Part shown: positions 3,169 through 12,761 of the stretch, piece after piece
Numbering within the stretch: the first letter of the stretch is position 1
How the letters are laid out: each line of letters starts with the position of its first letter
From: Methanobacteriota archaeon
Lineage (GTDB): Archaea > Halobacteriota > Methanosarcinia > Methanosarcinales > Methanogasteraceae
Assembly (NCBI GenBank): GCA_034658575.1
Contig: JAYEFK010000240.1
Span: forward strand, 1-12,761
Length of the DNA stretch: 12,761 nt
Direction of reading: 5' to 3'
Translations under genes and position numbers: made by a program
Notes under the pieces: generated by a model
The model's input: the letters and a program-made list of their open reading frames with translations, nothing else
Database searches by the model: none
Told to the model about the DNA's origin: nothing

Positions 3169-3330
3169 CCACAGCCGCCCGCCGCCTGCACACACGCCTC
3201 TGCCCGCCCCCGCTCATCTTTCGCGACCCCCGGCGGCGCATCCGCCTGGGACGTCACAACGCAGAGGCTCCCGCCGCCCGGCTTGCCTGCGACGAAGCAC
3301 ACACAGCACGAATTGGCGGCGAAGGGCGCC
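3169..3330 (+). repeat. GC-rich array repeat, copy 4 (terminal copy, abutting host DNA)
   Basis: ccacagccgcccgccgcctgcac...gacccccggcggcgcatccgcc...ccgccgcccggcttgcctgcgacgaagcacacacagcacgaattggcggcgaag aligns with copies 2 and 3. Homology is lost after about 3326. Confidence 0.85.
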
Positions 3331-3429
3331 ACGATGTGTGCAGAGGTCAAGGCACCCCCCGTACTGGTACTGTGTTATCGGCACCTCGCGGTAGCAGCGA
3401 TACCACAACCTTGATATGCACATCTCCCG

Positions 3430-4596
3430 ATGTCGTCAGACAGAGGCGTTTATTTGACTGAATTTGACATACACGTTGGCTACACACACATCAAAAATCC
3501 GATCGCGCTTGCACCGATGGCAGGCATCACAAACATCGACTTTGTCAGGGATCATGCAATGAGCGCAGGGCTTGCCGTGATCGGCGGATATAATCTGGAC
3601 GATGCGACAAACGAGGCAGCAAGGAGCATTAACGAGCGCGGGCGTGCTGAATTTGTGACACCCGAGCCTACCAAACATCTGCGAAGCGAACTCGATCGCC
3701 TGGAAGGGATGGGTGACTCCCCCACAATCGCACTCAACGTCAGAAGCGCTGAAATTATGCCGCTAATGGAGACGGCACATCTCGCAAAGGAGTATGGCGC
3801 AATCCTTGAGATCGATTGCCATTGCCGACAGCCGGAGATGACAGATATCGGGGTGGGCGAACCTCTTCTTCACGATTTGCAGAAACTTGGATCGATCATC
3901 TCGAAGATCAAGGAAACCGGGGTTGTTCTCTCTGTAAAGACCAGATCCGGAATCGTTGACGACCGCGAACTTGCGGTAGCGATCGAGGAGGCAGGCGCGG
4001 ATATGATCCACATCGATGCCATGGAACCCGGATATGGCGCTGACTATAATGCGATCAAGGCGGTAAGAAATGCCACCGATCTCTTTATGATATGCAACAA
4101 TTCCGTCACGGATTTCAGAAGCGCAAAGGATATGTTCGGATACGGTGCAGACATGGTCTCGCTTGCGCGAGCTGTGCCCAAGATTCCAGGAGTGATAGAT
4201 GACCTTGTCCGCTCTGTCACCACCTTTCAGAAGCAGACCGGCTGGTACAATGCACCAAAGCACATCTGCAGCGGAGGAGACGATCGGGCACTCGCGTTCT
4301 GCTGCCTGCCTGTCAAGCGGTGTGCGCTCATGCGGGTGCTCCGCAGGTATGGGATGACGCCGCAGGAGTTTGCAGACTTAAAGGTCGAACTCTCACGCGG
4401 AACACCGCTCGAACTTGGAGATAACACATGCTTCGGGACGCTGATATGGTGCTGCAAACTCACAAAACCGTGCTTCATGCGTGACGCTGTGCTCGATCAG
4501 ATCGGCATTTCAGGAGCCCAGTATATGAAACTCAAGAAACAGCTCTCTGAAGGTATTCTTAATCGCCTCAGAAACTCCCAATCTCAGCTGCTGTGA
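3430..4596 (+). CDS. Methanogenesis marker domain 9-type protein: N-terminal TIM-barrel-like region plus a C-terminal 8-Cys domain
   Basis: The C-terminus contains FCCLPVKRC and WCCKLTKPC plus four more Cys, matching my recollection of the [WFY]CCxxKPC x2, eight-invariant-Cys marker-9 domain. The N-terminal APMAGITN resembles Dus/NifR3-like barrels. Confidence 0.6.
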   Translation: MSSDRGVYLTEFDIHVGYTHIKNPIALAPMAGITNIDFVRDHAMSAGLAVIGGYNLDDATNEAARSINERGRAEFVTPEPTKHLRSELDRLEGMGDSPTIALNVRSAEIMPLMETAHLAKEYGAILEIDCHCRQPEMTDIGVGEPLLHDLQKLGSIISKIKETGVVLSVKTRSGIVDDRELAVAIEEAGADMIHIDAMEPGYGADYNAIKAVRNATDLFMICNNSVTDFRSAKDMFGYGADMVSLARAVPKIPGVIDDLVRSVTTFQKQTGWYNAPKHICSGGDDRALAFCCLPVKRCALMRVLRRYGMTPQEFADLKVELSRGTPLELGDNTCFGTLIWCCKLTKPCFMRDAVLDQIGISGAQYMKLKKQLSEGILNRLRNSQSQLL

Positions 4597-5027
4597 ACAA
4601 TCATCACCGGAATGGTGGACGTGTGAACGACCCTGGTGGCAACGCTTCCGACAAGAATTCGATCAAGCCCTGTTTTGCCAAGCGTGCCCATCACGATAAG
4701 GTCGATCTCGTTTTCCTGTGCATAGAGAACGATCTCGCTCGCAGGATGCCCTTCCAGAATGCTGCACTCGACAGATACGCCGGATTCCGTGCCCTGATCT
4801 TCCACGTGCTTCAGAGCCTCATTGCCTTCTATGCGTATCAGTTCATACATACTCTCCCATGCAGCGTCCATCGGCAGTGTTGCAAACGCACCTGCATCAA
4901 GGACGTATACAGCGTGAACATCTGCCCCTGCGATGCGGGCAAGTTCGATGCCGTAGTCAACCGCCTTTTTGGTGTTCTCTGAGCCGTCGGTCGCGATCAG
5001 GATATTTTTGTATAATTCACTCTCCAT
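4584..5027 (-). CDS. Universal stress protein (UspA family)
   Basis: ILIATDGSENTKKAVDYGIELA...HAVYVLD...LIVMGTLGKTGLDRILVGSVATRVVHTSTIPVMIV is a classic UspA pattern including G-x2-G-x9-G(S/T). Its 3' end overlaps the convergent upstream gene by 13 nt. Confidence 0.85.
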   Translation of the reverse strand: MESELYKNILIATDGSENTKKAVDYGIELARIAGADVHAVYVLDAGAFATLPMDAAWESMYELIRIEGNEALKHVEDQGTESGVSVECSILEGHPASEIVLYAQENEIDLIVMGTLGKTGLDRILVGSVATRVVHTSTIPVMIVHSS

Positions 5028-5181
5028 AAGATCATCTCATCTACCGGATTGCTGTGGAATGGGATAAGGTTTTGTGTTGAGGGGTGGAGGCGCATTTGAT
5101 GATCAGGGGGTGGGGAAGTCGGGCTACAAGCGTTTAAGGAGTTGTGGAGCATAGTTTAGCGCGGATATTTCCGGAGCAAAC

Positions 5182-6405
5182 ATGGATTATGATGTCGTTG
5201 TGGTCGGCGCCGGACCTGCGGGCTGTCTGGCAGCGAAGTACGCCGCAAAAAACGGAGCGAAAACACTAATCATCGAGGAACACGCATCCATCGGGTCGCC
5301 TGTGCAGTGTGCAGGTCTGCTGAGTACGAGCGCGATCCGGGAGTGTGAAGTCGTTCCAGACAAGGGGTTTCACCCGATCACAGGCGCGTTTGTGTGTGCG
5401 CCCGACGGGAGCAGGATCCGCATATCGGGAGGCGAGATCAAGGCGTACGTGGTCGACCGCCGGATATTTGACCGCACGCTCGCAGAGAATGCGATCCGTT
5501 CAGGCGCAGATATTCTCATGCGCACGCGGGCGGTCGGTATCGGTACCGGCACGGGAACTCGTGAACACCGGAGGATTCTCCACGTCGCAATCGAAGGCGA
5601 GCCGGACGTGATCGAGGCTGATGTGGTCATCGGGGCGGACGGGGTACAGAGCCATATCGCACGGTGGGCTGGTCTCGATACGCCGGACATGGTTCTCTCT
5701 GGCGCACAGGTCAGCACGGTCTACGACTTCGATGATCCCGAATTTGTCGAGATATTCCCTGGATCGTGCGCTCCCGGATTCTTTGCATGGGCGATCCCGT
5801 ACCACGGTAGCGCACGCATCGGGCTTGCAGTCCGACCGGGGTCGGGGTCGGCATTGGGCACGGGATCGGAAGTGAGGCATGAGTCTGCGTATGCTCATCT
5901 GAAACGGCTGATCGCAGAGCACCCGGTCGTATCCGGAAAGTGCGCTCCCGGAATCGCAGGCATCGCGCTTGGTGGGATCCCGATCAGTGTGCCGCAGCAA
6001 ACGGCAGCCGATGGCGTGCTGATCGTTGGCGATGCCGCGGGGCAGGTCAAGCCGACGTCAGGCGGAGGCGTGTATCCCGGGGCTGTGTGCGCAAAGATCG
6101 CGGGAAAGATAGCAGCAGACGCTGTTCTGGAGGGGGACACATCTGTCAGGCGGCTCTCCGAATACGATAAACTCTGGAGAGCCCGGATCGGGAGGGAACT
6201 TGCGATCGGAAGGAGGATTAACGGATGGATGGCGCGTCTTTCTGATTCCGAGATCAACCGGCTGATTGGGGTGCTGGATGATGATGAGTTGCTGGATCTG
6301 ATCACGAGATACGGGGATATGGATCATCCGTCTGTTGTCGTCCGGAAACTCCTGATGAACAGGAAGAGCATGGGTGCTTTCCTGAAGATGGTTCTGATGA
6401 GGTGA
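5182..6405 (+). CDS. Geranylgeranyl reductase family flavoprotein (archaeal lipid saturation type)
   Basis: It has the N-terminal FAD fold YDVVVVGAGPAGCLAAKYAAKNG, then RRIFDRTLAENA, GADGVQSHIAR and GDAAGQVKPTSGGG, typical of the GGR/ChlP family. An SD ggag lies 5 nt upstream. Confidence 0.85.
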   Translation: MDYDVVVVGAGPAGCLAAKYAAKNGAKTLIIEEHASIGSPVQCAGLLSTSAIRECEVVPDKGFHPITGAFVCAPDGSRIRISGGEIKAYVVDRRIFDRTLAENAIRSGADILMRTRAVGIGTGTGTREHRRILHVAIEGEPDVIEADVVIGADGVQSHIARWAGLDTPDMVLSGAQVSTVYDFDDPEFVEIFPGSCAPGFFAWAIPYHGSARIGLAVRPGSGSALGTGSEVRHESAYAHLKRLIAEHPVVSGKCAPGIAGIALGGIPISVPQQTAADGVLIVGDAAGQVKPTSGGGVYPGAVCAKIAGKIAADAVLEGDTSVRRLSEYDKLWRARIGRELAIGRRINGWMARLSDSEINRLIGVLDDDELLDLITRYGDMDHPSVVVRKLLMNRKSMGAFLKMVLMR

Positions 6406-6615: not shown

Positions 6616-6625
6616 ATATTTAAAT
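6616..6625 (+). promoter_or_regulatory. Putative TATA box (atatttaaat) for the grpE-like operon
   Basis: The TTTAWATA-like element ends 25 nt upstream of the ATG at 6650, and no SD lies between them, so the transcript is probably leaderless. Confidence 0.5.
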
Positions 6626-6649: not shown

Positions 6650-8170
6650 ATGCGGAACGATGGCAAAGAGAATGATGCTGGAGAGGCTGTGACAAACGAG
6701 ATTATAGTGGTTTCGAAGAAGGAGATGGACGAGAAGGACGAGCTGATCGCATCCCTGAAGGTTAAAGCCGAGAAGATGAAATCCGACTTTGTGCGGTACA
6801 AAGAGCGGACTCAAAACGAAGGCGAAGAGATACGGAGGAAAACATCCGGCGAATTGGTCCGGCAGTTGCTGATCGTCGCTGACACGCTTGAACGTGCTGT
6901 ATATAGCTATGAGAGGGGCGCCGGGGGGGTGGGTGAGTGCGAGGTCGTGGACAGGATGGTAGAGGGGACACGAAGCAGCATGGAGATGACCTACAATCAG
7001 TTGCTGGACGCGTCAGGGGTCGTTCCGATCGCACCATCAGCAGGTGAACGGTTCGATGATGAACTGCACACCGCAATAGAGACCGCGCAAGATCCTCTTC
7101 TTCCGGACAAGACCATTCTGTCCCTTGTCCGGAAAGGATATATGCTGAACAACGAGTTGATCCGACCGGCTGAGGTGATCATCTCCAGAGGCGGCGGCGA
7201 ACCTGTAGAAGGGGGGCAGGACGGAGATACCGACAGAGGGAAGAGAACACGAGAAGCAAAGCCCGGAACGATGATGTCGCGATTTATGCGGCGTTTTGTG
7301 AAGAGGTCGCTTGAAGTGGAGTTGAAGGAGATCGCGGAGAGAGAACAGAAATTGGGGGAGCGCGCACGTGAATTGGTCCGTAACGAGGAAATACTCAGAA
7401 CTTCGGTCAAAGAACTTGACCGGCGAGAGAATGAATTTAAAAAAATAGAAGAAGAATGGACAAAAAGAAAAGGAGAAGCAGAATCGGGAGTTCTTGATTT
7501 AGAACAACGCAGAGAAGTGTTGGAAGCCGAGATCAGGGAATCAAAGAGACAATTATCCGCCATCACTGATGCTCTCAATGAACAGAGGGTTAATGAGGAT
7601 AAGATCGTTGTTGAGAGCATTGCGCTTGGCAGATATAACGTTGAGCTATCAGAAGAGCGGGGAAAGTTGTCAAACCAGATAGATGAGATGGAAGGAAAAA
7701 GGGAAGCGCTTAATTATGAATTGACGGATATGGGCGAACGAAGAGCATGGAACATCGAAGAGCAGTCAAAGATGGAGCAAAAAACAGCAGGGCTCGATGA
7801 AAAGTTGTCCATGTCAGAAAATGAGTTACAAAAAGCAAAAGAACTGGTAAATGCGGAATCAGAGGTGGTTCGCGAGCTTGTGCAGCGCAAAGAATCGCTG
7901 GCAGCAGAGATAGAAGAAACAGAGAGGGTGCTGGAGATCGCTTACGAGAATCTGGATGAGCTGGACGGCAGGAAAGATAAATTGGTCATCGAAAGCATCG
8001 CCCTCCACCGGTACAACGAGGCGCTGTTAGAAGAGCGTGGGGAACTGCTAAACGAGATTGAAGTAGGTGCGGAGGACACGAGTGAAGTAGAAGAAGATGT
8101 CGGAGAAGATATGGATGAAGAAAAAAAGAAGAAATCCGCATTTACAATATCCACACCATTCTGGTGCTGA
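6650..8170 (+). CDS. grpE: GrpE-domain nucleotide exchange factor fused to a long C-terminal coiled coil with an acidic tail
   Basis: The first ~185 aa show the GrpE pattern (KSDFVRYKERTQNE...LLIVADTLERAV...FDDELHTAIE...VRKGYMLNNELIRPAEVIIS). About 310 further aa are E/K/R/L-rich heptad-like sequence containing a duplicated module. Confidence 0.8.
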   Translation: MRNDGKENDAGEAVTNEIIVVSKKEMDEKDELIASLKVKAEKMKSDFVRYKERTQNEGEEIRRKTSGELVRQLLIVADTLERAVYSYERGAGGVGECEVVDRMVEGTRSSMEMTYNQLLDASGVVPIAPSAGERFDDELHTAIETAQDPLLPDKTILSLVRKGYMLNNELIRPAEVIISRGGGEPVEGGQDGDTDRGKRTREAKPGTMMSRFMRRFVKRSLEVELKEIAEREQKLGERARELVRNEEILRTSVKELDRRENEFKKIEEEWTKRKGEAESGVLDLEQRREVLEAEIRESKRQLSAITDALNEQRVNEDKIVVESIALGRYNVELSEERGKLSNQIDEMEGKREALNYELTDMGERRAWNIEEQSKMEQKTAGLDEKLSMSENELQKAKELVNAESEVVRELVQRKESLAAEIEETERVLEIAYENLDELDGRKDKLVIESIALHRYNEALLEERGELLNEIEVGAEDTSEVEEDVGEDMDEEKKKKSAFTISTPFWC

Positions 8171-8186
8171 AAACAGGTGATATAAC

Positions 8187-9962
8187 ATGCAAAGAGAAAT
8201 AATCGGGATCGATTTCGGTACGACGAACTCAGGGATAGCGTTCATCGAATTCGACGAGCCAACAATCATAGAGAACAACGAAAACGAGCGAGTCACTCCG
8301 TCTGTTGTGTATTTTAAGGAGGGGGGAGATGTTGTGGTCGGAAGCGCTGCAAAGCGTAACATCATCGCAAGCCCGGAGCGGACTGTTGCGTCGATCAAGA
8401 GGCAGATGGGCACCGACCACAAGGTGCAGATCGGCAAGGAGCCATATCCGCCAGAGTACGTGGCAGCGCACATCATCAAAAAACTTGTCTCCGATGCTGA
8501 GAAGCGAATCGGGACGCAGATCACGGACGTTATAATAACGGTGCCCGCATATTTCATGGACTCGCAGCGGCAGGCAGTCAAGGACGCTGGCGAGATCGCG
8601 GGCTTGAATGTGCGCGGGATCCTAAACGAGCCGACCGCCGCCGCACTAGCGTTCGGATTTGAGGATGAAGGCGAGGAACGCAGAATCCTTGTCTACGACT
8701 TCGGCGGTGGCACGTTCGATGTTTCAATCCTCTCGATCGGGGACGGGTTCTACGATGTCGATGCAACGAGTGGCGACAACCATCTCGGTGGCGATGACAT
8801 CGATTCACGGATCGAGGAGTTTATCATCGATAAAATAATAGAAAAGCACAAAATAGATCTTAGAAGTAAGAAGAATGGAGATAGATCAGTGCTTCAGTCG
8901 GTCCGGGAAGAAGCCGAGCGTGTGAAGATCGAACTGTCTGATAAAGAGCGCGCGACCATCAATTTACCATACCTGAGTAAGAGCAAGCAGGGCTCGCCAA
9001 TTACGTTTAGCTACACCCTGACAAGGCAGGAATTCAACGAACTCATCTTCGATTTCATCGAACGGACACGAAATCCGATGAAACAAGCGCTCGACGATGC
9101 TGCGCTTCATCCGGACGAGATCGATAATATACTCATGGTTGGCGGGACCACGTACATACCCGCGGTGCAGGAGTTTGTGCGCGACTTCTTTGGCAAGGAA
9201 CCAGAGCACAAGATCGACCCGATCGAGGTGGTCTCGCTCGGAGCGGCGGTTGCTACCCTGAAAGACGGCGTCAAAGAGAATGATGAGAAAGGCAGGGAAA
9301 AAGAGGGGGAAAAAGGAATATCCGGAACGATAAGACGACCTGTTGAGATAAGTGATGTCGCCTCCCGTTCTATCGGAGTTTCAGTTGCAGACGGGACTGT
9401 TTCAAAGATCATTTCAAGGAACACAAAGATTCCGGTCATACAGGCGAAGCCGTTTACGAACGCAGGAGATTATGGGGACGAGGTGATAATCGAGGTGTAC
9501 CAGGGAGAGAGCCTGTATCCGGAGGAGGGTGGCTATCTTGGCGAGTTCTGGATAGATATTGAGCCAAAACCCGTGGGCGAATCGGAGATCGATGTCACTT
9601 TTGCGATCGGGGAGGAGTTTGGCATCTTGCATGTAACTGCAAAGGATCATGACTCTGGCAATGAGCGGACCGTGAAGATGGAGGCTGTAGGCAGGCTCAC
9701 AAAGAGAGAAAAAAACAAGTGGATGCGAAAGATGCTAAATACATACGCAATCGAAGTAACGGTTGAAAATATCGATACACGGGATGTTCTGGACTATTAC
9801 CTCAATCCAAGCGCGACTATCCATGATGTGAGGCGGGACCTTATGAAGAAAGGTATCTTGAGTGAAGGGATGGGCATCTTCTACGATGATGAAGCGCTCG
9901 ATGATGAATCCCTGGTCCGGGACCTGGATATAACAGACGGTTCGACGCTGGAATTAAAATGA
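8187..9962 (+). CDS. dnaK: Non-canonical Hsp70/DnaK-family ATPase with a C-terminal ubiquitin-like domain in place of the helical lid
   Basis: Hsp70 motifs are present: GIDFGTTNS, VPAYFMDSQRQAVKDAGEIAGL, NEPTAAALAFG, DFGGGTFDVS and LMVGGTTYIPAVQEFV. A beta-sandwich SBD-like region follows (RSIGVSV...IPV...EVYQGES...IDVTFAI...ILHVTAKD). The last ~70 aa are ubiquitin-like. An SD aggtga lies 6 nt upstream. Confidence 0.85.
   Translation: MQREIIGIDFGTTNSGIAFIEFDEPTIIENNENERVTPSVVYFKEGGDVVVGSAAKRNIIASPERTVASIKRQMGTDHKVQIGKEPYPPEYVAAHIIKKLVSDAEKRIGTQITDVIITVPAYFMDSQRQAVKDAGEIAGLNVRGILNEPTAAALAFGFEDEGEERRILVYDFGGGTFDVSILSIGDGFYDVDATSGDNHLGGDDIDSRIEEFIIDKIIEKHKIDLRSKKNGDRSVLQSVREEAERVKIELSDKERATINLPYLSKSKQGSPITFSYTLTRQEFNELIFDFIERTRNPMKQALDDAALHPDEIDNILMVGGTTYIPAVQEFVRDFFGKEPEHKIDPIEVVSLGAAVATLKDGVKENDEKGREKEGEKGISGTIRRPVEISDVASRSIGVSVADGTVSKIISRNTKIPVIQAKPFTNAGDYGDEVIIEVYQGESLYPEEGGYLGEFWIDIEPKPVGESEIDVTFAIGEEFGILHVTAKDHDSGNERTVKMEAVGRLTKREKNKWMRKMLNTYAIEVTVENIDTRDVLDYYLNPSATIHDVRRDLMKKGILSEGMGIFYDDEALDDESLVRDLDITDGSTLELK
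9750..9959 (+). other. Ubiquitin-like (beta-grasp) domain at the Hsp70 C-terminus; no terminal Gly-Gly
   Basis: IEVTVENIDTRDVLDYYLNPSATIHDVRRDLMKKGILSEGMGIFYDDEALDDESLVRDLDITDGSTLELK lines up with ubiquitin [70 protein letters not shown] at the hallmark hydrophobic and PS.TI..V positions. Confidence 0.6.
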
Positions 9963-11122
9963 GAAAAGCAAAGAAGTCAAAGGCGAAGAAGGCAGAGATC
10001 TCGGAAGAGGAGCTGGCATATAACGAGTGGATGCAGCTCTTCGCCTGTGACGACCCGTATTGGAAATTCCCGACGCGATATGTGGATTTTTCGCGGCTGA
10101 TAGGGCATGGAAAAAGAATGGAAAGTTTTGAAGAACAGTATTCAGACTGCATCGAGGATCTCCTGTTAGGGGTTCCAACGTATTATTGCGTGCTCTGTGT
10201 CTCGAAGAACGACCCGCCTGATGTGATCAAGGAGGCATACCAGCGAAAGATCGAACACTCCACGTATCCTGATGATGTGATCGAAAGAGCCTGCGAGACG
10301 TTAAGCGACAGGAAAAAGCGTTCCGACTATGAGGAGATTTTGCGCCTTTTTCTGAAGCTCATGCAGGGATACAGTGCGAAAGATAAGCGGGAGCTGGTAG
10401 AAGAGCATGATGAATGGATAGAAGATGAGAAAGATTATGCTACAGTGAATTACCTTATGAAGCATCGCGGTGCATGGCTTAACCTCTATCACCTCGGTGC
10501 ACCTACGTTCTACGAGCTTCTTGGTGTGGATCAGGTGAAATTGAAGCCGGAGGAAGTAGTGCAATGTAAAAATGATGGTGTGGACAAGAGATTGGTAGAA
10601 GACGTCTGTAGTGTACTGAACAATCCGCAGTTGAGGTTCGAATACGATTTTATGCTTTGCAGGGCGGATGAAATTCTGCCGGTGGATTATCTGATGGGCG
10701 GCGAAAGCAGTAAACCAGTGTGGAAGGGGGACGATCGCTCGTATCTGGTGGCGCTTAGATGTTATGAAGGCGTAAACAAGCAGGACCTGATTATGAATGA
10801 ACACATTGATTGGGTAGACTACATCGGCGATAAAACGTTTTACGATGTGTTGACCATCGACAGGGATTCGATTCCAGAGGATAAACGAGAAGCAGAGAGA
10901 TTTATCAGGAATGTGTACAAGGGATTGGAACGGACACCAGAGGTCAATCGTGCGTACAGCGTTTTAAAAAATTTTAGGATGAGGGCTGACTATGATTGGA
11001 TGTTGAAGCAGAATGCAATAATTGATGCGCTGAAGGGGATCGCTATGACTGAGCCGGACGATACGACCTTAGATAAGCTGCTAGATAAGATGCTAGAACT
11101 GTCGGATGCGGACAGGGAGTGA
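9959..11122 (+). CDS. Protein with three tandem degenerate J-like domains (no HPD, no Zn finger, no G/F region)
   Basis: J1 is TYYCVLCVSKNDPPDVIKEAYQRKIEHSTYPDDVIERACETLSDRKKRSDYEEIL. J2 is TFYELLGVDQ...LVEDVCSVLNNPQLRFEYDFML. J3 is TFYDVLTIDRDS...VNRAYSVLKNFRMRADYDWML. The ATG at 9959 overlaps the Hsp70 stop (ATGA). Confidence 0.65.
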   Translation: MRKAKKSKAKKAEISEEELAYNEWMQLFACDDPYWKFPTRYVDFSRLIGHGKRMESFEEQYSDCIEDLLLGVPTYYCVLCVSKNDPPDVIKEAYQRKIEHSTYPDDVIERACETLSDRKKRSDYEEILRLFLKLMQGYSAKDKRELVEEHDEWIEDEKDYATVNYLMKHRGAWLNLYHLGAPTFYELLGVDQVKLKPEEVVQCKNDGVDKRLVEDVCSVLNNPQLRFEYDFMLCRADEILPVDYLMGGESSKPVWKGDDRSYLVALRCYEGVNKQDLIMNEHIDWVDYIGDKTFYDVLTIDRDSIPEDKREAERFIRNVYKGLERTPEVNRAYSVLKNFRMRADYDWMLKQNAIIDALKGIAMTEPDDTTLDKLLDKMLELSDADRE

Positions 11123-11158: not shown

Positions 11159-11164
11159 TTTTTT
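11159..11164 (+). terminator. Oligo-T tract (tttttt), a possible archaeal intrinsic terminator after the chaperone operon
   Basis: A run of six T begins 37 nt after the J-like gene stop. Archaeal RNAP terminates at oligo-T tracts. Confidence 0.4.
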
Positions 11165-11309: not shown

Positions 11310-12761
11310 ATGCAGGTCTTACATGCAATCTGGAACGGCGATGAACTGTGCTTATGGGCGGAGGCATCCGCGCTGCCACTGACCGCCCCGCCCCGCCGCG
11401 GAAGACCGCCAAAAAATCCAAAGCCAAGGACTCACCCATTCTCGCTTCCTGCCGATATGCTGAGTGAGATCGTCGAAAGCAACTTCGGGCATACCCCGTC
11501 CGGAATCGGGACGGTGCCGCTTCTCCTCCCCTCGACACAGAGAGGTCCGCTGCCATCGCCGTGGCTTGTCCGGGAGGAGGAGTACGACCACGGGAACGCG
11601 ACCGCGCTTGCCGGCTGGAATGTCGAGACGCTAATATTTGACCCGGGGGGCGCGTTTGATCTCTTACTCGATCTACCAGCCCGCCCACACCGCGGCACCG
11701 CCTTTGGAAGTTCGCTTCGGTTCTGGACCGAAGCAGCCCTATTCTCGCTTGCGCTTATCACGGAAGAACAGTTCATACCCACAATCAGAGAGAATGTCGC
11801 GGTCTGGACCGCGGTGATCGCTGGAGATGACGTGGAACGGATGCACACACTCGCAGATGCGATGCCCGCATACTGCCGGGCACTCATCATCTGGAAAGAT
11901 GGCAGCCCATGCGCACAGGATACACCGCCACGGCTCATGATTCGGAGTTTCATCGACCGAACCGTTGACGTGTTCGTGCGCAGGAGCCTTGAGTCTATAT
12001 CACTGATCCCGCCCCGCCGCGGTCGCCGCCCCAAAATCACCCCGATGCCGGAGCGGTTCCTATCGGCACTGTCAACCTGGGATCCCGCGATCGATGCCCC
12101 GATCGAGGATGTGGCAGCATTCTCGGGAGAGTTAGAGGGGTGGCTCACCGGGCTCCAGCCAGCCATGCCATCTGCGCCATTCCGCACGTGTTTCAGGCTC
12201 GATGCGCCACCGGATCCTGATGAGGAGGAGTATGAAGCGATGGAGGGTGGCGATTATGATGATGAAGATGGTGGTGGGAGTGGTGGTGGCGATGAAACTC
12301 GATACAGGGATCAAGAGCGGGACTGGAATATGTGGAGTCTCGGTTTCTTCCTCCAGGCGAAGGACGATCCGAGTCTGCTGATCCCTGCGGATAAGGTATG
12401 GAAGACACGGTCGGAAACGCTCACGTTTCTCAAACGAAAGTTCAAAAACCCGCAGGAGCAGTTGCTTGCCGACCTTGGCAGAGCTTCTCAGACATACCCC
12501 CCAATCGAGAAGAGTTTGCAGGATGCACGCCCTGTGGGGTTTGATATGAGTGCGGGGCAGGCGTATTCCTTCCTGCGGGAGTTTGCCCCTCTTCTTGAAC
12601 AGAACGGTTTCGGAGTCCTTCTCCCGCCATGGTGGGAGAAACCGGGCGCACGGCTCGGCGTCAAATTAAAGATCAATACACCGTCTCCTGTGCAGGAAGG
12701 TGGCATCGGTTCAGGGCATTTCAGCGTCAAATCGATCATGTCTTACGACTGGACGGTAGCG
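11310..12761 (+). CDS. SNF2-family helicase, N-terminal SNF2-helicase-associated region (partial; continues beyond the window)
   Basis: My own translation is open for 484 codons to the window end and is absent from the ORF track because it has no stop. MQVLHAIWNGDELCLWAEA... is the typical start of prokaryotic SNF2_assoc-domain helicases. An SD aggag lies 7 nt upstream. The helicase motifs are not yet reached. Confidence 0.7.
   Translation, partial: MQVLHAIWNGDELCLWAEASALPLTAPPRRGRPPKNPKPRTHPFSLPADMLSEIVESNFGHTPSGIGTVPLLLPSTQRGPLPSPWLVREEEYDHGNATALAGWNVETLIFDPGGAFDLLLDLPARPHRGTAFGSSLRFWTEAALFSLALITEEQFIPTIRENVAVWTAVIAGDDVERMHTLADAMPAYCRALIIWKDGSPCAQDTPPRLMIRSFIDRTVDVFVRRSLESISLIPPRRGRRPKITPMPERFLSALSTWDPAIDAPIEDVAAFSGELEGWLTGLQPAMPSAPFRTCFRLDAPPDPDEEEYEAMEGGDYDDEDGGGSGGGDETRYRDQERDWNMWSLGFFLQAKDDPSLLIPADKVWKTRSETLTFLKRKFKNPQEQLLADLGRASQTYPPIEKSLQDARPVGFDMSAGQAYSFLREFAPLLEQNGFGVLLPPWWEKPGARLGVKLKINTPSPVQEGGIGSGHFSVKSIMSYDWTVA

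Follow-up and report, generated by a model that had tools for sequence, protein, structure and literature searches.

An archaeal genome fragment of 12,761 nucleotides (hereafter the window; GenBank contig JAYEFK010000240.1 of assembly GCA_034658575.1, family Methanogasteraceae) carries, between positions 6650 and 11122, a tight operon of three genes, grpE-like, hsp70 and a gene for a protein built from degenerate J domains (J-like), which together make up a conserved and previously undescribed form of Hsp70 system in archaea, with an architecture of domains that is new. Hsp70 systems rank with the best-understood molecular machines, and the variant breaks, all at once, the rules treated as near-universal for them, those of a helical lid, of triggering through the His-Pro-Asp (HPD) motif of a J protein and of a small GrpE, while keeping the ATPase, the allosteric core and the exchange factor. 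In every member of the family the Hsp70 is encoded with its own GrpE, whose core is intact, and with a three-unit, HPD-less J-like protein. We consider it likely, at a probability of roughly two in three, that the trio is a self-contained, dedicated Hsp70 module, which forms a distinct archaeal DnaK-GrpE-J subfamily and probably operates alongside a housekeeping system. The layout of the operon is as follows, with all coordinates referring to the window.

6650-8170, + strand: grpE-like open reading frame (ORF), 506 aa
8187-9962, + strand: hsp70 ORF, 591 aa
9959-11122, + strand: J-like ORF, 387 aa
8175-8180, + strand: Shine-Dalgarno-like AGGTGA, 6 nt 5′ of the hsp70 ATG in the 16-nt gap 8171-8186, a putative ribosome-binding site
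9959-9962, + strand: ATGA overlap of the hsp70 stop and the J-like start, read from the sequence

The original prediction, a reading of the bare sequence that preceded this analysis, had described exactly this arrangement: the gene order and spacing of a dnaK operon, the three ORFs at these positions, a 16-nt gap with a Shine-Dalgarno sequence before hsp70 and an ATGA overlap between hsp70 and the J-like gene. ORF calling shows an overlap or a short gap at the hsp70/J-like junction in most related loci, and the spacing makes translational coupling of the three genes plausible. The window proteins are deposited as ‘nucleotide exchange factor GrpE’ (MEA1870458.1), ‘Hsp70 family protein’ (MEA1870459.1) and ‘hypothetical protein’ (MEA1870460.1). 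Their closest protein matches, at 90-93% identity, come from Candidatus Methanogaster, which belongs to group 2c of the anaerobic methanotrophic archaea (ANME-2c; naming per Chadwick et al., PMC9012536).

The Hsp70 can be divided into five segments, of which the first three correspond to the body of a canonical DnaK with one insertion and the last two occupy the position of the lid.

8187-9260, + strand: nucleotide-binding domain, aa 1-358 (alignment to E. coli DnaK)
9261-9344, + strand: charged flexible insert before the interdomain linker, aa 359-386 (model confidence and alignment)
9345-9701, + strand: linker and beta-sandwich substrate-binding domain, aa 387-505 (alignment; strands in the model)
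9702-9737, + strand: sole remaining lid helix, equivalent to helix A, aa 506-517 (model; aligns with ~507 to ~522 of E. coli DnaK)
9741-9962, + strand: C-terminal ubiquitin-family domain in place of lid helices B-E and the tail, aa 519-591, stop included (model and profiles)

Residues 5-539 match Pfam HSP70 (PF00012) with an E value of 5e-147. In a family alignment against E. coli DnaK, no variation is seen at the equivalents of K70, P143, R151, E171, D194, T199 and D201, of the linker residue D393 or of the interface residue N415; the counterparts of D148 and K155 are kept in at least 90% of sequences, and the pocket still has its equivalents of F426, A429, V436 and I438. The indel pattern is Gram-positive/archaeal in type and includes the loss of 24 aa and of 4 aa that E. 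coli DnaK has. The position of DnaK R167, a J-domain docking residue that pairs with the Asp of HPD, is taken by a glycine (G144) in the window Hsp70, and the linker reads V-E-I-S-D-V in place of V-L-L-L-D-V, a replacement motif (V/I-E-I-S-D-V) that is conserved in all loci. The charged insert just ahead of it lies in a stretch (residues 360-394) where the AlphaFold model has a predicted local distance difference test score (pLDDT) below 50, and in the closest ANME-2c relatives it exceeds the length seen in the rest of the family by 11 aa. Searched with Foldseek, the model finds DnaK structures at 36-43% identity over 520-560 columns, in matches that end at the lid. Scores against the NCBIfam DnaK equivalogs fall well below their cut-offs (520.6 bits vs 648 for NF001413; 515 vs 822.55 for TIGR02350), the NCBIfam HscA models likewise score under theirs, and two features of a bona fide DnaK, R167 and the hydrophobic VLLL linker, are both missing from the window Hsp70.

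At the position where DnaK has lid helices A-E and a disordered tail, the single helix at 506-517 is followed directly by the ubiquitin-family domain. AlphaFold predicts a beta-beta-alpha-beta-beta unit at residues 522-590 with a pLDDT of 80-90. A family profile of this unit matches ubiquitin chains in the PDB (~33 bits for a single ubiquitin, E ~1e-7), and PF00240 was matched in all 20 of the 20 family members tested, with a best E value of 8e-11. Taken in isolation, the window domain scores 24.4 bits against Rad60-SLD (cut-off 23.8) and 24.1 bits against ubiquitin (cut-off 25.4). It ends in ...TLELK in the window, the alternative ending in the family being ...LEIR(K/Q/E...), and a test for a conjugatable modifier of the ubiquitin, SAMP or Urm1 type found no Gly-Gly end and no E1-like or JAMM gene conserved in the clustered flanks. 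The C-terminal domain of this Hsp70 is a genuine, non-conjugatable member of the ubiquitin family.

The J-like protein contains three J-derived units, preceded by a conserved N-terminal region and followed by a poorly conserved tail.

9959-10165, + strand: N-terminal region with a Lys-rich start, the C-D-D-P-Y-W-K motif and a long helix, aa 1-69 (alignments and model)
10166-10366, + strand: unit 1, with S-x-Y-P-D for K-Y-H-P-D and a shortened helix III, aa 70-136 (Pfam and hhalign)
10490-10678, + strand: unit 2, the most degenerate, with no proline loop, aa 178-240 (hhalign)
10823-11017, + strand: unit 3, with the hallmark E-R-T-P-E-V-N-x-A-Y-S-V-L-K-N, aa 289-353 (hhalign and alignments)
11018-11122, + strand: C-terminal helical tail, aa 354-387 and stop (model helices 339-363 and 368-386, at lower confidence)

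Unit 1 is recognized by Pfam DnaJ (PF00226) over residues 74-125 (E 8e-8, 32.7 bits vs a cut-off of 27.8) and by hhalign against the E. coli DnaJ J-domain (97%, E 1e-10). Unit 3 aligns with the same domain at 88% (E 3e-6), and unit 2 does so at just 7%, vs 96.5% with unit 1 and 96.8% with unit 3. The predicted structure is all-helical and forms one compact body (pLDDT 84; predicted template modelling score 0.76), with further helical segments outside the three units, and its only meaningful fold matches in the PDB are J domains (probability 1.0, root-mean-square deviation 2-3.5 Å, ~61 columns). No HPD, the tripeptide that lies between helices II and III of a J domain and without which the Hsp70 ATPase is not stimulated, was found anywhere in the protein or in any member of the family alignment, the corresponding residues being Y-P-D in unit 1, where Y103 is invariant and P104 at least 90% conserved, and T-P-E in unit 3. 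A motif search likewise found no CxxCxGxG and no glycine/phenylalanine (G/F)-rich stretch in the J-like protein (the maximum G+F content in a 30-aa window is 0.2); being all-helical, it lacks the client-binding beta domains of class A/B DnaJ proteins, and it scores 27 bits against TIGR02349, where the cut-off is 377.

The strongest constraint falls on unit 3, whose motif is the most conserved stretch of the family. It stays nearly invariant even at 24-30% overall identity and occurs in nearly all loci, and the residues R317, Y320, T326, N330, A332, Y333, L336, K337, N338 and Y345 of the unit are invariant. The motif is also seen at L069 (5891-9870, an uncultured archaeon). This locus encodes a more distant pair, with an Hsp70 of 599 aa that is 37% identical and a J-like protein of 723 aa in which ERTPEVNLAYTILKN is preserved and a winged-helix domain (MarR/HTH_24-like) forms the C-terminus. 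In the N-terminal region, D32 and W35 of the DDPYWK motif are invariant. A role of this motif as a free pseudo-substrate for the Hsp70 pocket was considered and set aside, as the motif is ordered within the compact body at a pLDDT of 87-93.

The GrpE-like protein combines a complete exchange-factor core with a long extension.

6650-7192, + strand: GrpE core, aa 1-181 (long helix, four-helix bundle and beta domain; Pfam GrpE and BLASTP)
7193-8170, + strand: C-terminal extension of ~325 residues, aa 182-506 (composition and heptad scan)

Residues 12-179 cover profile positions 6-164 of 165 in Pfam GrpE (PF01025; E 4e-29, 101.7 bits vs a cut-off of 25.8), and BLASTP aligns the protein with residues 33-195 of E. 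coli GrpE at 26% identity (E 4e-10), from which we conclude that the core is complete. All NCBIfam GrpE equivalog cut-offs (NF0107xx) lie above its scores, the best being 65.9 bits vs 194 and 64.9 vs 137. From the intact core and the strict co-occurrence of the two genes, we infer that this GrpE would accelerate ADP release from its Hsp70. The extension runs through a Gly-rich linker, a basic amphipathic stretch, a charged helical/coiled-coil region of ~260 aa and an acidic stretch to a terminal KKKK-SAFTISTPFWC. The ~260-aa region is ~50% charged, almost free of Pro and Gly and shows heptad-like hydrophobic spacing; residues 220-483 give a weak match to SMC coiled coils, and tblastn revealed an internal repeat, the motif ESIAL-RYN-L-EERG-L-N-I being present in two copies in the extension. 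The tail KKKSPFTVSTPFW is kept in ANME-2c and has as its ANME-1 counterpart a hydrophobic end, ..F.EMPC. GrpE length in the family ranges from 180 to 570 aa and exceeds 230 aa in 46 of 49 proteins, so that the C-terminal extension is a general family feature of variable length. In three Methanoregula-like loci (L072, L073 and L074, ~8264-14338), which have two tandem J-like genes in the trio (394 + 394/379 aa), the GrpE is called as 570, 488 or 412+85 aa in otherwise near-identical contexts and shows a weak match to a crescentin rod, which suggests rapid length change of the coiled-coil extension.

Much of this had been anticipated. The original prediction had read the GrpE as carrying about 310 extra residues of coiled coil and an acidic tail, for which the composition and heptad scan now gives ~325 residues, with heptad periodicity in their ~260-aa charged region, and the acidic stretch; the Hsp70 as keeping its ATPase and beta-sandwich domains with a ubiquitin-like domain for a lid, which alignment, AlphaFold and PF00240 uphold with the refinement that helix A stays; and the third protein as three degenerate J-like domains without HPD, G/F region or zinc finger, on which hhalign and the motif search agree, adding the invariant Y-P of unit 1. 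It had also worried that a normal lid and normal J-domains might have been misread, and the predicted structures show a single lid helix and three HPD-less J units.

A scan of genome contigs with a profile of the J-like protein, using one genome per species, returned 67 loci. The ordered trio is found in ~50 archaeal species genomes, and wherever the contig is long enough, tblastn and ORF calling recover the grpE-hsp70-J order, the genes overlapping or lying a short gap apart. The hosts include ANME-2c, GoM-Arc1 (Argoarchaeum, Ethanoperedens), ANME-1 (Methanophagales), Methanoperedens, other Methanosarcinales, Methanomicrobiales (Methanoregula, Methanospirillum) and Thermoplasmatota, and Altiarchaeales appear among the Hsp70 matches. 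The close ANME-2c relatives (L001 and L003-L006) have the same remodelled trio at the same locus, and in distant lineages the trio encodes Hsp70s that are 48-55% identical and J-like proteins that are 26-36% identical to those of the window. Simple lineage-specific drift, with ordinary versions at this locus in close relatives, is thus not what the comparison shows, and the homologue and neighbourhood survey that the original prediction had proposed finds the trio conserved together across several archaeal orders. One metagenome-assembled genome (MAG) of the Methanomicrobiales, CAIYHQ01, has two separate trios on different contigs (L047 and L056).

Two clades can be distinguished. Clade A, consisting of ANME-2c, GoM-Arc1 and most ANME-1, has R167 replaced by G or A and the J-like motif C-D-D-P-Y-W-K-x-P; R167 is still present in clade B, which is made up of Methanoperedens, Methanomicrobiales, Thermoplasmatota and some ANME-1 and Methanosarcinales. 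Both clades have in common the ubiquitin-type domain, the S-x-Y-P loop, RTPxVNLAYSVLKN, DDPYWK and the V/I-E-I-S-D-V linker. The family is small: against 1.84 billion cluster representatives (50% identity), only 35 clusters reach an E value of 1e-30 with the J-like profile, and the weaker matches cover unit 1 alone and are ordinary J domains. The best 120 protein matches listed are all ubiquitin-tailed forms.

Two GoM-Arc1 loci, of Candidatus Argoarchaeum ethanivorans and GoM-Arc1-GOS (L012 9692-11128 and L015 3485-4909), have grpE and hsp70 reduced to remnants, namely a 59-63-aa ORF corresponding to the GrpE N-terminal helix and a 42-aa ORF corresponding to the C-terminal half of the ubiquitin-type domain. 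At both loci an intact J-like gene of 372 aa remains. Between the two species, the ratio of nonsynonymous to synonymous substitution rates (dN/dS) comes to 0.25 in this gene; the remnants, with few sites available, give 0.50 and 0.20, and a flanking gene gives 0.19. This shows that the J-like gene is under purifying selection there, and because it is kept intact without its grpE and hsp70, it must be more than an accessory co-chaperone.

These features allow a working mechanism to be proposed for the dedicated module. The Hsp70 would cycle between ATP and ADP states and be reset by its own GrpE, the retention of which argues for slow ADP release, unlike in HscA and HscC. In the absence of a helical lid, clients would either bind and leave quickly or have their binding gated by the ubiquitin-type domain, whose first residue comes four positions beyond helix A, which should place it near the cleft; the domain may act as a lid surrogate, as a docking handle for a partner, or as both. 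The J-like protein would be unable to trigger hydrolysis via the classical HPD-R167 route and may be a co-evolved adaptor or scaffold that sets the client or the site of action, with the R-T-P-E-V-N loop of unit 3 as the likeliest surface of contact with the Hsp70. In clade A, the loss of R167 may insulate the Hsp70 from ordinary DnaJ proteins, and the basic-hydrophobic GrpE tail (KKKKSPFTVSTPFW), which looks like a DnaK-type binding peptide, may be a pseudo-substrate of the Hsp70 pocket, by analogy to the N-terminus of E. coli GrpE.

That the trio is a dedicated machine rather than the housekeeping chaperone, as the original prediction had proposed, is supported by its conservation and by the DnaK and GrpE scores below the equivalog cut-offs. 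A housekeeping paralogue in this host is probable on the strength of surveys of related archaea: all surveyed Methanosarcinales and Methanomicrobiales carry canonical DnaK-DnaJ-GrpE (KJE) genes, and archaea with several Hsp70s are reported always to retain a bona fide DnaK, so that a canonical locus probably exists in this host as well (archaeal KJE surveys). Several points weigh against the dedicated module or narrow it. We found no client, partner or localisation signal for the module and no conserved neighbour that gives a functional hint, and the roles given above to the ubiquitin-type domain, unit 3 and the GrpE tail are hypotheses. R167 is kept in clade B although the J-like protein lacks HPD there too, which restricts the insulation argument to clade A. 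The J-like protein of the two GoM-Arc1 species, having lost its own Hsp70, could use another one, and the AlphaFold model of the Hsp70 is of moderate quality overall, with a mean pLDDT of 70.

A more specific version of the dedicated module gives the ubiquitin-type domain a role in degradation or unfolding, in that it would dock Hsp70 clients to an archaeal AAA+ machine, the PAN-20S proteasome or Cdc48. This would make sense of a domain whose ubiquitin-family membership is detectable by sequence, which is present in all family members examined and which, without a Gly-Gly end, must act in cis, and there is an analogy in the ubiquitin-like domain of BAG-1, which links Hsp70 to the 26S proteasome (PMC12922752). 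Nothing encoding a proteasome, PAN or Cdc48 is conserved in the neighbourhood of the trio, however, and the position of the domain right after helix A fits a lid surrogate equally well. We also know of no ubiquitin receptor in these archaea, and on balance regard the coupling as possible but unlikely. The same holds for its broadest form, a tentative proposal that we would not expect to prevail: a fourth class of prokaryotic Hsp70, besides the three types counted at present (DnaK, HscA and HscC; Mayer 2021, PMC8215388), in which the ubiquitin-fold domain couples the Hsp70 to a PAN-proteasome or Cdc48-type partner and an HPD-less triple-J scaffold replaces J triggering.

If the window trio were instead the sole housekeeping DnaK-DnaJ-GrpE operon of its host, merely diverged, the odd features would be tolerated decoration. 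The gene order and spacing are indeed those of a dnaK operon, and some sources label the protein ‘molecular chaperone DnaK’. The same architecture is, however, conserved over lineages that are ~50% diverged in Hsp70, including orders with documented canonical KJE operons, and the lid, the HPD J-protein and R167, which are missing here, are features that general DnaK function requires (Mayer 2021, PMC8215388). Such a role also sits badly with scores under the equivalog cut-offs, with the two trios of MAG CAIYHQ01 and with the deletion of hsp70 in the GoM-Arc1 species, and we consider it improbable.

The trio could also work in the manner of the fungal ribosome-associated complex (RAC), either as a permanent heterodimer of a lidless Hsp70 and the J-like protein that recruits another Hsp70, or as a scaffold with the coiled-coil GrpE. 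In the RAC, Ssz1, an atypical Hsp70 without a helical lid, is joined to a dedicated J-family protein, Zuo1; Ssz1 is not known to be active as an ATPase or to have an exchange factor dedicated to it, and the functional HPD J-domain of Zuo1 stimulates a different Hsp70. The pairing of a lidless Hsp70 with a dedicated J-derived partner recurs here, the compact J-like protein stays under selection even where its Hsp70 is gone, and the long GrpE coiled coil varies in length and, in relatives, weakly resembles a crescentin rod. The window Hsp70 differs from Ssz1, however, in having lost none of its hydrolysis residues and in having an exchange factor of its own, an argument for an active ATP cycle, and its partner differs from Zuo1 in lacking the HPD that stimulation of another Hsp70 would take. 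An RAC-like arrangement therefore seems quite unlikely to us.

The surroundings of the operon bear on one further explanation, and they contain the following features.

11310-12761, + strand: SNF2-type helicase gene running off the window end, N-terminal 484 aa (PF12419, DUF3670, ‘SNF2 Helicase protein’; NCBIfam ‘sll1366 family intein-prone helicase’)
11159-11164, + strand: T6 run, 37 nt past the J-like stop
6616-6625, + strand: A/T-rich box ATATTTAAAT, ~30 nt 5′ of the grpE-like ATG
5182-6405: geranylgeranyl-reductase-like FAD protein
4584-5027, - strand: universal stress protein (Usp)
3430-4596: Dus/TIM-barrel flavoprotein-like gene with a Cys-rich C-terminus
580-688, 1457-1565, 2392-2500 and 3228-3336, + strand: four copies of a GC-rich ~110-nt repeat upstream of the Dus-like gene, at a spacing of 836-935 bp

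The SNF2-type protein, which has an acidic Gly/Asp/Glu-rich insert, does follow the operon as the original prediction had noted, but the conserved link that this might imply does not hold up: the gene is a neighbour of the trio at just three loci of close ANME-2c relatives (L003, L004 and L045), and other ANME-2c loci with the same upstream Dus-Usp-reductase synteny have different downstream genes. Clustering of all flanking ORFs gave no fourth conserved gene, the other clusters being antisense shadow ORFs or a generic ABC transporter. With such limited adjacency and no shared fourth gene, we rejected the SNF2-type gene as a part of the chaperone module. A component of defence or conflict systems tied to this helicase, for which one could cite the Hsp70-GrpE-DnaJ modules of bacterial GTPase conflict systems (PMC7159879), CnuD of the CoCoNuTs (PMC10542128) and the upstream repeats and retropepsin-like ORF described below, is highly improbable, since the helicase is adjacent in those three loci only, no effector, GTPase, McrBC or other neighbour is conserved, the Methanoperedens trio is flanked by housekeeping genes, and membership of a defence system was rejected on two null results, PADLOC-DB 2.0 giving no match at E <=0.01 for the GrpE-like protein, the Hsp70, the J-like protein or the SNF2 N-terminus and the viral contigs yielding no relative.

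The A/T-rich box and the T6 run are compatible with an archaeal transcription unit. Going by the known spacing of archaeal TATA boxes, ATATTTAAAT is a possible TATA box, in which case the transcript would be near-leaderless, and the T6 run is a possible oligo-T terminator that would divide the operon from the SNF2-type gene at 11310. A scan with bacterial promoter and terminator models, which are not relevant to an archaeal host, showed no enrichment over shuffles, and Rfam and tRNA scans of the window gave no match.

The block at 3430-6405 is syntenic with other ANME-2c loci and not with other lineages. The GC-rich repeat further upstream has a 42-nt degenerate core with 4 matches vs 0 expected; a long hairpin is predicted for it, with only one compensatory pair and no Rfam match, and the repeat is absent from all 71 related loci, including the syntenic ANME-2c loci. 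It could be a mobile repeat or the repeated leader or promoter of a small-gene array. Between two of the copies lies a 131-aa ORF (974-1369, + strand) with weak retropepsin-like matches (Asp_protease_2, gag-asp_proteas and RVP; E 1e-3 to 4e-3, all under the Pfam cut-offs).

The dedicated module is a natural experiment on the need for a lid and an HPD motif in an Hsp70 system. It also places a sequence-recognisable ubiquitin-family domain in a euryarchaeal chaperone, which bears on how ubiquitin-like domains were first linked to proteostasis, and its occurrence in uncultured anaerobic methane and alkane oxidisers (ANME-1, ANME-2c, ANME-2d and GoM-Arc1), among other hosts, may point to a shared difficult client. 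Were the trio the sole housekeeping system, a lidless Hsp70 independent of HPD would serve the whole ANME-2c proteome, and this would be no less notable; were it a fourth class, it would be an archaeal, cis-encoded counterpart of eukaryotic chaperone-degradation coupling, with Hsp70 control exerted without HPD.

A literature search agrees with the original prediction, which knew of no described prokaryotic Hsp70 system with this combination: no description of a ubiquitin-tailed, lidless Hsp70 variant was found in the searchable literature, two archaeal KJE surveys do not describe the present family, and chaperones go unmentioned in two papers on ANME. Petitjean et al. report two E-K-J clusters each in Methanoregula boonei and Methanosphaerula palustris, which might include members of this family; a search seeded with a Methanoregula-type member named neither M. 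boonei nor M. palustris among the best 120 matches listed. The window operon follows the canonical KJE operon of Gram-positive bacteria and class II methanogens in gene order and in its close spacing, and shares with it a complete GrpE core and the residues for ATP hydrolysis, allostery and peptide pocket; the window Hsp70, with Gram-positive-type indels, is 40% identical to E. coli DnaK and 42-43% identical to Geobacillus and Mycobacterium DnaK structures. It differs from the canonical operon in that lid helices B-E and the tail are exchanged for a ubiquitin-family domain, VLLL for VEIS, and R167 is lost in the ANME clade; in that the GrpE has up to ~390 extra C-terminal residues; and in that the J partner consists of three HPD-less units with no G/F region, zinc finger or client-binding beta domains.

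Like HscA and HscC, the present Hsp70 is a specialised form encoded with its own J-type partner. HscC (550-580 aa) and the present family (566-609 aa) are also both shorter than DnaK and share the deletion of DnaK 76-101 (PMC8215388). HscA and HscC, which are described as bacterial, have a helical lid and HPD-containing J-proteins (HscB; DjlB/DjlC) and no GrpE (PMC8215388), whereas the archaeal family keeps a dedicated GrpE, lacks the lid beyond helix A and has a partner without HPD; the loop equivalent to DnaK 285-297, a GrpE signature, is present in the ANME clade. The difference from Ssz1-Zuo1 lies in the retained ATPase residues and GrpE and in the absence of HPD.

Extra Hsp70s in specialised roles are also known from the GAP1-N2 GTPase conflict modules (Kaur et al. 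2020, PMC7159879) and as CnuD of CoCoNuT (PMC10542128). In these systems, found mainly in actinobacteria and firmicutes, GTPases, fibronectin type III (FNIII) repeats and McrBC or HEPN effectors adjoin the chaperone, and the ATPase motifs of CnuD are degenerate; the archaeal trio has no such neighbours and intact ATPase motifs. A parallel to the partner protein is Pam16/Tim16 (PMC3237618), a J fold without HPD whose part in its Hsp70 machine is to regulate or tether and not to trigger the ATPase. Pam16 is a single J-like domain paired with a true J-protein (Pam18) at a membrane translocon, whereas here three J-derived units are fused in a soluble, compact protein and no true J-protein is present in the operon. 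For the C-terminal domain a parallel is BAG-1 (PMC12922752, PMC7766421), in which a non-conjugatable ubiquitin-family domain is likewise joined to an Hsp70 machine. In BAG-1, this domain is borne by the exchange factor and docks to the 26S proteasome, whereas in the archaeal module it is borne by the Hsp70 itself, in the position of the lid, and in hosts without a known ubiquitin system.

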